26,059 nucleotides of DNA from a virus: the UHGV virus genome UHGV-0143644. The stretch is one strand, 5' to 3'. The stretch's first letter is position 1. Each line of letters begins with the position of its first letter. The notes under the pieces are model-generated. The model saw nothing but the letters and a program-made list of their open reading frames with translations. It did no database searches and was not told where the DNA came from. The translations under genes and the position numbers were made by a program. Below, piece by piece: positions 1,965-2,638 of this stretch.

Positions 1965-2359
1965 AATCTATTCGCCTTATATATGTCTGGAGGTTTTGAG
2001 GATGATGATTAATTATTATCGCCAGAACGAAATGTGCACGAAAAATTGCTATAAGAATTGTGTCATTTTTATCATTGTGATATGACCACTTCGTCATTAA
2101 TCTTATGATCGTTTAAATAGTACCTCCAAATCACGCAACGAACTTTGCTGGATTCAGTTTATGCTGCTGCAAATCCGCTCGCAGTAAACCTTTCAGACGC
2201 TCCGTGATGTTATCAGTGGTTCTTTAAGCGTTTTGCTGGTGTACTCACTACAAACGAATTGCGAATCGAATCAATGTGAAACGGAAAGGTACAATCTCCC
2301 TTTTTTTAGTGTTAACATCGCTCAACCGGGTGGAAGGTGAGAGGTTAATGTCTTTCATT

Positions 2360-2611
2360 TGTGTACCTGATTGCGAACCAATTTAGCATTTGTTGGCTAG
2401 ATGGTTTCGCAATGAACTGTTAATAAACAAATTTTTCTTTGTATGTGATCTTTCGTGTAAGTAACATCAGAGATTTCATTGCATTCACTCTTGTTTCTGC
2501 CTGTTTCATACATCCCGCGCCACACCTTGATTTTCTGGATTTATCTGTTTCAAATTAGTTCATCTCAATCGTTCTCGTGTCGTAAAATTTGTGTACCAAA
2601 TTGTGTACCAA
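2360..2611 (+). repeat. Three copies of TGTGTACC upstream of int, two as tandem TTGTGTACCAA; candidate integrase arm-type sites near attL
   Basis: TGTGTACC at 2360-2367; TTGTGTACCAA at 2589-2599 and 2601-2611, ending 28 bp before the int start codon. Functional role is inferred. Confidence 0.3.
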
Positions 2612-2638
2612 TTTTGACGATGACGAACAGGTATTAGG

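Follow-up and report, generated by a model that had tools for sequence, protein, structure and literature searches.

A lambdoid prophage of Escherichia coli probably integrated by its P4-type integrase within the tRNA-mimicking 5' leader of thrS

The stretch of DNA analysed here (26,059 nucleotides of the UHGV virus genome UHGV-0143644; called the window in the following) derives from the chromosome of Escherichia coli, which it matches at up to 100% identity. The present study concerns positions 1965 to 2638 of this window, i.e. the 674 bases between the host gene espL1 and an integrase gene, int. We conclude with high confidence that this region is mostly host DNA and ends in the left attachment site (attL) of a lambdoid prophage, the P4-type integrase (Int) of which recombines inside the 5' leader of thrS, the gene for threonyl-tRNA synthetase (ThrRS). 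An earlier reading made from the sequence alone had called the integration target atypical and unidentified. Atypical it is, whereas the target can now be named as a hairpin of the thrS leader that mimics a tRNA anticodon arm. The same reading had rightly assigned Int to the P4 type and placed its start at 2639: the protein matches PF13356 (Arm-DNA-bind_3, 1.9e-20), PF00589 (Phage_integrase, 1.1e-16) and, weakly, PF22022 (Phage_int_M), belongs to PHROG 1 (integrase, 2.2e-64), and combines an N-terminal arm-binding domain with a C-terminal tyrosine-recombinase catalytic domain.

The junction was mapped with window positions 1800-2700 as query against 5426 complete E. coli genomes, all of which matched it. 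The match runs through 2458 in 39 of 40 sampled rows, and in genomes without the element homology ends at query base 659, which is window position 2458. At least 80% of the query was covered in 73 of the 5426 genomes, which we count as carrying the element; it is absent from approximately 5350, and empty sites were read in two. Both in K-12 and in the isogenic empty site of NZ_CM132638.1 the ATG of thrS lies 29 nt beyond 2458; positions relative to thrS are given as the window coordinate minus 2487. In a base-by-base walk along the isogenic bacterial attachment site (attB), attL was identical with attB over 494 bases (1965 through 2458) and the right attachment site (attR) over 54 bases leftward of the thrS ATG. 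The element is bounded by a direct repeat, a core of 23 bp found at attL and attR, and relatives hold the uninterrupted site. In the complete genome NZ_AP022159.1, int opens a lambdoid prophage of approximately 47 kb, which ends directly upstream of thrS-infC-rpmI-rplT and carries exo/bet/gam, a cI-like repressor gene, O/P-type replication genes, a DLP12-like nin region with lysis genes, and lambda-like head and tail genes. The other prophage end is attR at thrS, and the alignment with the uninterrupted loci of K-12 and NZ_CM132638.1 leaves core and attL within the interval 1965-2638 in which the sequence-only reading had expected them. Approximately 470 of these 674 bases, including a short frame and the first of three repeated motifs discussed below, are host DNA, and 1965-2435 lies outside the functional attL save for its last bases. 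To the right of the core follows the phage-derived P' arm; the distance of approximately 180 bp between core and int is kept between this arm and those of seven relatives.

This mapping bears directly on another target that had been considered, namely a protein-coding host gene interrupted by the phage, the 3' end of which would be reconstituted by the short frame near 2107-2207. An open frame of 28 codons indeed exists, although it extends approximately 15 nt further to the right than the proposed 2107-2191. It is separated by 229 bp from the core to its right, and none of its bases stems from the phage. Moreover, no record inspected annotates a coding sequence at 2121-2207, and the frame is only one of 17 open reading frames (ORFs) of at least 20 amino acids that overlap the 674-bp stretch. 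Since its DNA is found in essentially all 5426 genomes and is unchanged in the empty sites, the frame is not a reconstituted gene end. We therefore reject it as a remnant of a disrupted gene, regard it as a chance-level ORF in host intergenic DNA, and consider an interrupted coding gene as target to be practically excluded.

Repression at the thrS operator is exerted by ThrRS, which binds to it in competition with the 30S ribosomal subunit. The thrS leader is composed of four domains, and its hairpins II and IV resemble the anticodon arm of tRNAThr, hence their recognition by ThrRS (PMC11088916, PMC3858243). The sequence GUGAUCU-UUCGUGU-GGGUCAC (thrS -42 to -22) forms a 7-bp stem and a 7-nt loop that contains the threonine anticodon triplet CGU, with predicted pair probabilities of 0.86-0.94 in the empty-site leader, and this hairpin corresponds to domain 2 of the translational operator. 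The identity between attL and attR spans the end of the linker, the 5' strand of the domain-2 stem and the whole loop, and it stops at the last loop base. The segments GTGATCT, TTCGTGT and GGGTCAC of attB, with AAGTAAC as the right half in the phage attachment site (attP), form an imperfect dyad, and CT(T/G)-N6-AAG is conserved in the attP or attL sites of eight relatives. Int would bind the dyad-symmetric stem halves of domain 2 as inverted core-type sites, and strand exchange would take place inside the domain-2 loop, as tRNA-targeting relatives use the anticodon stem-loop. Integrases that target the anticodon loop of real tRNA genes cross over in the loop and use the stem halves as core-type sites; an anticodon-loop sublocation class of integration sites has reportedly been described by K. 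Williams.

It could be argued that a cryptic tRNA, tmRNA or tRNA fragment was overlooked as the true target, given that P4-type integrases usually target tRNA or tmRNA genes and that the loop holds the threonine anticodon triplet. ARAGORN detected neither tRNA nor tmRNA in the window or in eight related loci, and Rfam gave no match at E<=1 in window positions 1-6000 or on the intact empty-site thrS leaders, in agreement with the earlier statement that 1965-2638 holds no tRNA. The blank Rfam result on the intact leader also means that no curated family covers the thrS leader. Since, moreover, the core is located 29 nt before the thrS ATG in a characterised mRNA leader, a hidden tRNA has almost no probability left. 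Descent of the core from a site specific for thrW (tRNAThr) was considered as well. Only the loop bases TTCGT are common to the core and the thrW anticodon arm, which leaves such a direct descent unsupported.

If the thrS leader is the target, integration would leave thrS without its native promoter and without operator domains 3-4, for which a phage-borne copy would substitute. Approximately 190 bp of non-host sequence left of the core at attR, the P arm, resemble the host leader: the alignment of host thrS -230 to -52 with the P arm shows 71.9% identity over 185 columns, with a local score of 76 compared to 9.4+/-1.4 in shuffles. Retained in the P arm are the T-run with the TGTTA(A/C)CAT block, the domain-4 hairpin and the A/U-rich linker. 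Of the 5426 E. coli genomes, 71 have the P arm and 73 have int; because these are essentially the same genomes, the P arm belongs to the phage. Direct proof that the thrS-like leader segment is phage-borne comes from the packaged genome of Salmonella phage vB_SosS_Oslo (Int 74.7% identical), in which a contiguous attP lies just upstream of int. Its order is a thrS-like promoter block, a pair of arm-type sites, a domain-4-like hairpin, the linker, the core TCTTTGTATGTGATCTTGCGTA and a P' arm with a second pair; Proteus phage Pm34 (Int 48% identical) follows the same plan, with arm sites TGTGTACA. In other words, attP carries the displaced part of its target (promoter block, domain-4 hairpin and linker), here the 5' rather than the 3' side. 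Since attR does not differ from attB between -51 and the ATG, inclusive, domain 2 with its CGU loop and domain 1 (Shine-Dalgarno sequence and AUG) are exactly restored; the leader of the lysogen is predicted to contain domain 2 as well as domain 4. Furthermore, no other thrS promoter is evident, because the gene that precedes attR lies on the opposite strand. In the lysogen thrS would stay expressed and autoregulated from the phage-supplied leader, because the phage copy would replace the displaced promoter and operator; this functional replacement is well supported by the comparisons, from which we infer it.

The domain-4 hairpin was compared in six sequences, i.e. the host leaders of E. coli and Salmonella and four phage P arms. 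In this alignment 96.1% of the cells are paired (29-37% in slid-register controls) and four pairs are changed on both sides; the covariation score of 0.239, compared with 0.144 in shuffles, was reached by two of 500 shuffles. The loop triplet NGU (TGT or GGT) is invariant across the six copies. In the copies from phages, the second arm-type site (ATTGTGTACCA) forms the 5' strand of the lower domain-4 stem, and changes in the 3' strand maintain the pairing with it, for example TGGATACACAA in Oslo. Accepting that the arm site is the 5' stem strand and that the 3' strand compensates, one and the same DNA would serve as arm site for Int and as RNA stem.

Lysogeny in Citrobacter, judged by the sequences, exchanges the thrS control region for a heterologous one. 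With 78% identity to the host leader of E. coli (score 90), the P arm of the Citrobacter contig belongs to the E. coli type, and against the displaced Citrobacter leader it scores 9, which is background without detectable similarity. One might regard the thrS-like P arm as passive baggage, i.e. host DNA acquired once through an aberrant excision, with thrS driven otherwise or its altered levels tolerated. Such a view could draw on the identity of only 72% between the copy and the host leader, and on this Citrobacter phage leader unrelated to that of its own host, from which it follows that an exact host match is evidently not required. However, the cassette is kept in every attP seen, over Int identities of 48-100% and several genera, and compensatory changes preserve its hairpin stem, the 5' strand of which is at the same time an arm site. 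The missing alternative promoter speaks against passive baggage as well, and so does the growth defect, attributed to the thrS promoter, which follows deletion of the thrS-proximal repeat (the attR equivalent) at the wzy locus of Salmonella Typhimurium discussed below (PMC12074656). We thus consider passive baggage quite unlikely, and a working replacement of the displaced leader the better account. As a separate observation, contig IMGVR_UViG_3300045988_080304 (L027, L020) starts in host DNA with attL and ends in P arm, core and P' arm; it could represent either a tandem lysogen or an assembly in which the integrated and the excised form are mixed.

The repeated motif had already been recognised in the sequence-only reading. 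As stated there, TGTGTACC has exactly three copies in the 26-kb window (at 2360, 2590 and 2602, all on the + strand), two of them in tandem before int; 0.42 copies are expected from shuffles, and none of 100 shuffles reaches three. The proposed role as arm-type sites holds for the tandem pair, whereas the copy at 2360 belongs to the native thrS leader. This host copy aligns with the first arm-type site of the P arm, and the host counterpart of the second site is degenerate (TTGCGAACCAA). When attP is reconstructed by joining the left arm of attR to the right arm of attL, it contains four exact copies of the 11-mer TTGTGTACCAA in one orientation, where none is expected. They form one pair per arm with 12-bp spacing, at -100/-88 and +131/+143 from the core end, and the left-arm pair is 58-70 bp away from the left edge of the core; the 28-mer ATTTGTGTACCAAATTGTGTACCAATTT is identical in both arms. 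Equivalent pairs stand at the same distance from the core in eight aligned P' arms, the Int identities of which range between 47% and 100%, and pairs were found in Oslo, Pm34, Citrobacter, Yersinia and Serratia. Because the pair recurs in both arms and in relatives, and because phage mEp021 keeps the motif, the tandem TGTGTACC/TTGTGTACCAA copies are probable arm-type sites, which Int would bind via its N-terminal arm-binding domain.

Phage mEp021 (Int 44% identical) carries TTGTGTACCAAAT-type repeats near both genome ends (L010 1-190, L011 760-856), and at these ends the arm motif is present and the thrS core absent. By these sequences it seems to have the arm specificity in common with the thrS-leader phages and a different core specificity. 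It was also considered as a link to a tRNA-Thr target and discarded, given that its ends show the arm motif only and that its attB is not identifiable.

The tandem copies could alternatively be operators for a recombination directionality factor (RDF), a repressor or a host factor, or only elements of the int promoter. Their position, 28-50 bp upstream of the int ATG and directly after a conserved TAnnAT block that resembles a -10 hexamer, would fit this view, and the arm-site role is itself read from sequence. Nevertheless, the same pair exists in the other arm, where there is no int promoter; Int possesses an Arm-DNA-bind_3 domain; and mEp021, with another core, keeps the motif at both ends. 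In KplE1 the arm sites are the operator of int (PMC2951348), so that the two roles need not exclude each other. Operators or promoter elements alone appear unlikely to us, and we prefer arm-type sites. These sites probably also autoregulate int, by analogy with IntS of KplE1, because they are found just downstream of the -10-like hexamer that precedes int. TAnnAT is present in seven of eight aligned P' arms, with Pm34 (GAAAT) as the exception, and the promoter scan picked up the Oslo equivalent as TTCACA-18-TAAGAT. Moreover, in the lysogen the native thrS promoter, together with 134 nt of its leader (domain 4, the linker and one half of domain 2), is directed towards the P' arm and int, no terminator was predicted in a scan between this displaced promoter and int, and in free attP a phage-borne thrS-type promoter takes the same position relative to int. 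Two CTGTTTCA repeats in the P' arm may be binding sites for an RDF or a host factor, as far as can be judged from sequence; blocks of the type (C/T)GTTTCA recur in the P' arms of relatives. The coordinates of all features are given in Table 1.

Table 1. Features of the attL region and of the corresponding phage and host sequences (window coordinates unless a locus is named).
Feature	Position	Strand	Basis or remark
espL1 (arpB in K-12), host flanking gene	66-1964	-	espL1 annotation in matching genomes; Pfam ShET2 N-terminal region and ankyrin repeats
Host espL1-thrS intergenic DNA, non-phage	1965-2435	.	494 bases from 1965 identical to isogenic empty site
Short frame ending ...LLDSVYAAANPLAVNLSDAP, chance ORF in host DNA	2121-2207	+	28 codons and stop at 2205-2207
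Native thrS promoter, extended -10-like block TGTTAACAT, preceded by T-run	2310-2318	+	TTTTTTAGTGTTA(A/C)CAT conserved in host and phage P arms
Native thrS leader, 5' part (about -162 to -29), severed from thrS and joined to P' arm	2325-2458	+	
Host TGTGTACC copy, thrS -127 to -120, directly 5' of operator domain 4	2360-2367	+	found in K-12 and isogenic empty site
thrS operator domain-4 hairpin, loop AUUUGUUG, UGU at 2391-2393	2370-2413	+	predicted pair probabilities at least 0.97
attL core, 23-bp identity TCTTTGTATGTGATCTTTCGTGT, thrS -51 to -29	2436-2458	.	common to attL, attR and attB
Domain-2 5' stem GTGATCT	2445-2451	+	predicted fold
Domain-2 7-nt anticodon-like loop TTCGTGT, putative crossover (overlap) segment	2452-2458	+	predicted fold
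Phage P' arm of attL	2459-2638	+	no empty-site homology past 2458; aligns with P' arms of seven relatives
Two CTGTTTCA repeats, candidate accessory-protein (RDF/IHF-type) sites	2501-2508, 2545-2552	+	five window copies, 0.99 expected
TAAAAT -10-like hexamer, candidate int promoter	2583-2588	+	TAnnAT in aligned P' arms
Two tandem probable arm-type sites TTGTGTACCAA, 12-bp period	2589-2599, 2601-2611	+	recur in other arm and relatives
int, P4-type heterobivalent tyrosine integrase, 402 aa	2639-3847	+	Pfam and PHROG
76-aa ORF, candidate excisionase/RDF, convergent with and overlapping int 3' end	3805-4035	-	position conserved
Promoter-like block TGTTACCAT	phage P arm		
Arm-site-like motifs in host leaders	window 2360-2380; L013 3729-3755; L037 about 25-50; L027 left flank		

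It must be mentioned that several points weigh against the interpretation given here. The E. coli element is without a close relative among sequenced free phages, and its prophage activity is putative; megablast of P' arm and int against sequenced phages gave no match, relatives being found by protein-level search only. The members from Yersinia, Serratia and Proteus rest on the conserved core and the attL layout, not on adjacency to thrS. The domain-4 covariation stems from six sequences only, and its shuffle control ignores their relatedness. In the lysogen leader domain 2 reaches an ensemble pair probability of approximately 0.5, compared to approximately 0.9 in the host leader. A simple sigma-70 scan calls the thrS promoter block in neither the host nor the phage copy, and the thrS transcription start is only presumed to be at -162 (approximately 2325), 7 nt after the TGTTA(A/C)CAT block in the host. 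Finally, the cleavage positions, the binding of Int to the repeats and the control of the chimeric leader by ThrRS are read from the sequences by inference.

Relatives of the integrase are widespread. Homologues were found in Citrobacter (89% identity), Cronobacter (77%), Atlantibacter (76%), Salmonella (75%), Plesiomonas (74%), Sodalis (68%), Erwinia (58%), Yersinia (57%), Morganella (50%) and Serratia (47%). The attL loci inspected comprise four of Citrobacter/Escherichia sp. (adjacent to yniD), one of Salmonella (adjacent to nucA), and those of Yersinia and Serratia; in every one of them ATGTGATCTnnCGTnnAAG occurs approximately 180 bp upstream of int and is followed by the arm-site pair. 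The scan of genome contigs covers four loci, the wider sampling coming from the protein database and from viral contigs; in a scan of viral contigs with the core pattern, 16 of 27 matches were clear members. An ORF of approximately 80 amino acids is found in the Yersinia, Serratia and Salmonella loci at the position equivalent to that of the 76-aa ORF of the window. The latter matches PHROG 4745 (DNA binding protein, 1.8e-6), and against Pfam it gave weak helix-turn-helix matches below the cut-offs only.

Some further observations concern individual loci. The prophage of NZ_AP022159.1 carries emrE, a ybcK-type recombinase gene, iss and a lipocalin gene (L003 1730-12345, 36979-38721), and a gene for a P-loop (KAP-like) NTPase adjoins attR on the opposite strand; all of these genes are possible moron or defence cargo. 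In NZ_CP040390.1 (E. coli A1_136) int is located at 2.34 Mb (+) and the matching P arm at 4.38 Mb (-), which suggests a chromosomal inversion of approximately 2 Mb with one end inside the thrS-leader prophage. A prophage remnant of approximately 5.6 kb lies between espL1 and thrS in NZ_AP027685.1 (E. coli PSS-10; L045 6500-12560). Both att ends have outlasted a massive internal deletion: attL and the P arm are still there, together with a truncated int, tail-fibre fragments and a gene for a P-loop NTPase of the KAP type. In Citrobacter braakii ATCC 51113 (L009 6001-6612) Int is matched over its first 204 residues only, with attL and P' arm intact; this locus is probably another truncated remnant.

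Two loci reported in other contexts resemble the system described here, and in the searchable literature no paper was found in which an att site is connected with the thrS operator. The wzy (rfc) locus of S. Typhimurium, which encodes the O-antigen polymerase, is flanked by 113-bp repeats and lies next to thrS, and the mechanism of its excision was stated to be unknown (PMC12074656). Its circular junction (PMC12074656, S2 File) and the Oslo attP (L004:2061-2530) are 83.7% identical over 418 columns with the same core, and 87% identical in the phage-only P' arm; the locus is positioned between nucA and thrS, where another Salmonella holds an Oslo-like prophage. In contrast to the thrS-leader prophages, it has no int, and its arm-site pair is largely deleted. 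Because its junction resembles the Oslo attP even in the phage-only arm, the wzy locus looks, by sequence, like a decayed prophage of the thrS-targeting family, although the authors linked it neither to a phage family nor to the thrS operator (PMC12074656). The prophage-like Aux3 element of the type VI secretion system (T6SS) of V. cholerae has a P4-like integrase and an attB between gcvT and thrS, with int distal to thrS; two direct repeats approximately 40 bp apart stand on both flanks, and Int-driven integration was shown experimentally (PMC7721734). In that paper the term tRNA does not occur and the thrS operator is never mentioned. By description alone, the likeness consists in the type of integrase and in the location of the element upstream of thrS. 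The layout of the Aux3 repeats, again as described, resembles core plus domain-4 copy in the E. coli element. Integration into the thrS leader is thus offered as a common explanation of the wzy excision puzzle, and it may extend to the thrS-adjacent Aux3 T6SS island.

A more far-reaching, and in our opinion rather doubtful, possibility is that the thrS regulatory region is itself a mobile phage cassette, the host copy of which has repeatedly been overwritten, so that the upstream half of the thrS operator of E. coli and Salmonella, with promoter and domain 4, would represent a fossil P arm. The host leaders of E. coli, Yersinia, a Serratia-like contig and Citrobacter show exact or decayed arm-site motifs (TGTGTAC...) 5' of domain 4, and their occurrence in the same register as the phage sites may be taken as a first hint. 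Citrobacter groups closely with E. coli and Salmonella in the enterobacterial phylogeny. Its leader type is unrelated to that of E. coli, the Citrobacter phage carries the E. coli type, and the Citrobacter leader can be aligned to the P arm of another phage (L041) with a score of 21, compared to a background maximum of 16, which may be a second hint. The arm motif accompanies another core in mEp021, and remnants keep both att ends in S. Typhimurium wzy, in E. coli PSS-10 and possibly in the pandemic V. cholerae Aux3; these are hints as well. The persistence of such remnants fits a host dependent on the phage-supplied promoter.

Among characterised systems, KplE1 comes close: its attL overlaps the int promoter, IntS represses its own synthesis, the RDF acts on int in the same negative sense, and the arm sites are the operator sequences of int (PMC2951348). 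Here, too, int adjoins attL and reads into the prophage, the arm sites are directly upstream and overlap a promoter-like element, and a small ORF for a DNA-binding protein, not co-transcribed with int, is the RDF candidate. Several of the Int homologues are in fact labelled as CPS-53 integrase by their sources. The differences concern the target, the thrS leader instead of the argW tRNA gene, and autoregulation, which is shown for IntS and deduced for the present Int. Phage 21 and e14 integrate at icd and carry a replacement of the gene end. The attP described here likewise provides a diverged replacement for what is displaced from an important host gene; in icd, however, a coding 3' end is replaced, whereas in thrS it is a promoter together with a structured translational operator.

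The tRNA and tmRNA targets of P4-type integrases include leuX for P4, argW for IntS of KplE1/CPS-53 and ssrA for CP4-57. With such systems the thrS-leader phages have in common the architecture of the integrase, a 7-nt loop as (here putative) crossover segment, a dyad-symmetric stem, the attP copy of the displaced target part and tandem arm-type repeats in both arms. Different are the target, an mRNA leader hairpin that merely mimics an anticodon arm, the restoration of the 5' side with promoter and operator, and the copy, which is diverged (72%) instead of near-identical; the phage leader corresponds, on the 5' side, to the 3' portion of a tRNA gene that tRNA-targeting phages carry. tRNA genes are the classic prophage targets, usually explained by their conservation and dyad symmetry, and an integrase family that uses a mimic of the anticodon arm offers a natural test of why they are chosen. 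With each lysogenisation, the phage would rewire an essential aminoacyl-tRNA synthetase gene in both its promoter and its translational feedback operator. Compared with the known systems, the integrase machinery is hence conventional, and it is the class of target that is new: a tRNA-mimicking mRNA leader, restored on its 5' regulatory side.

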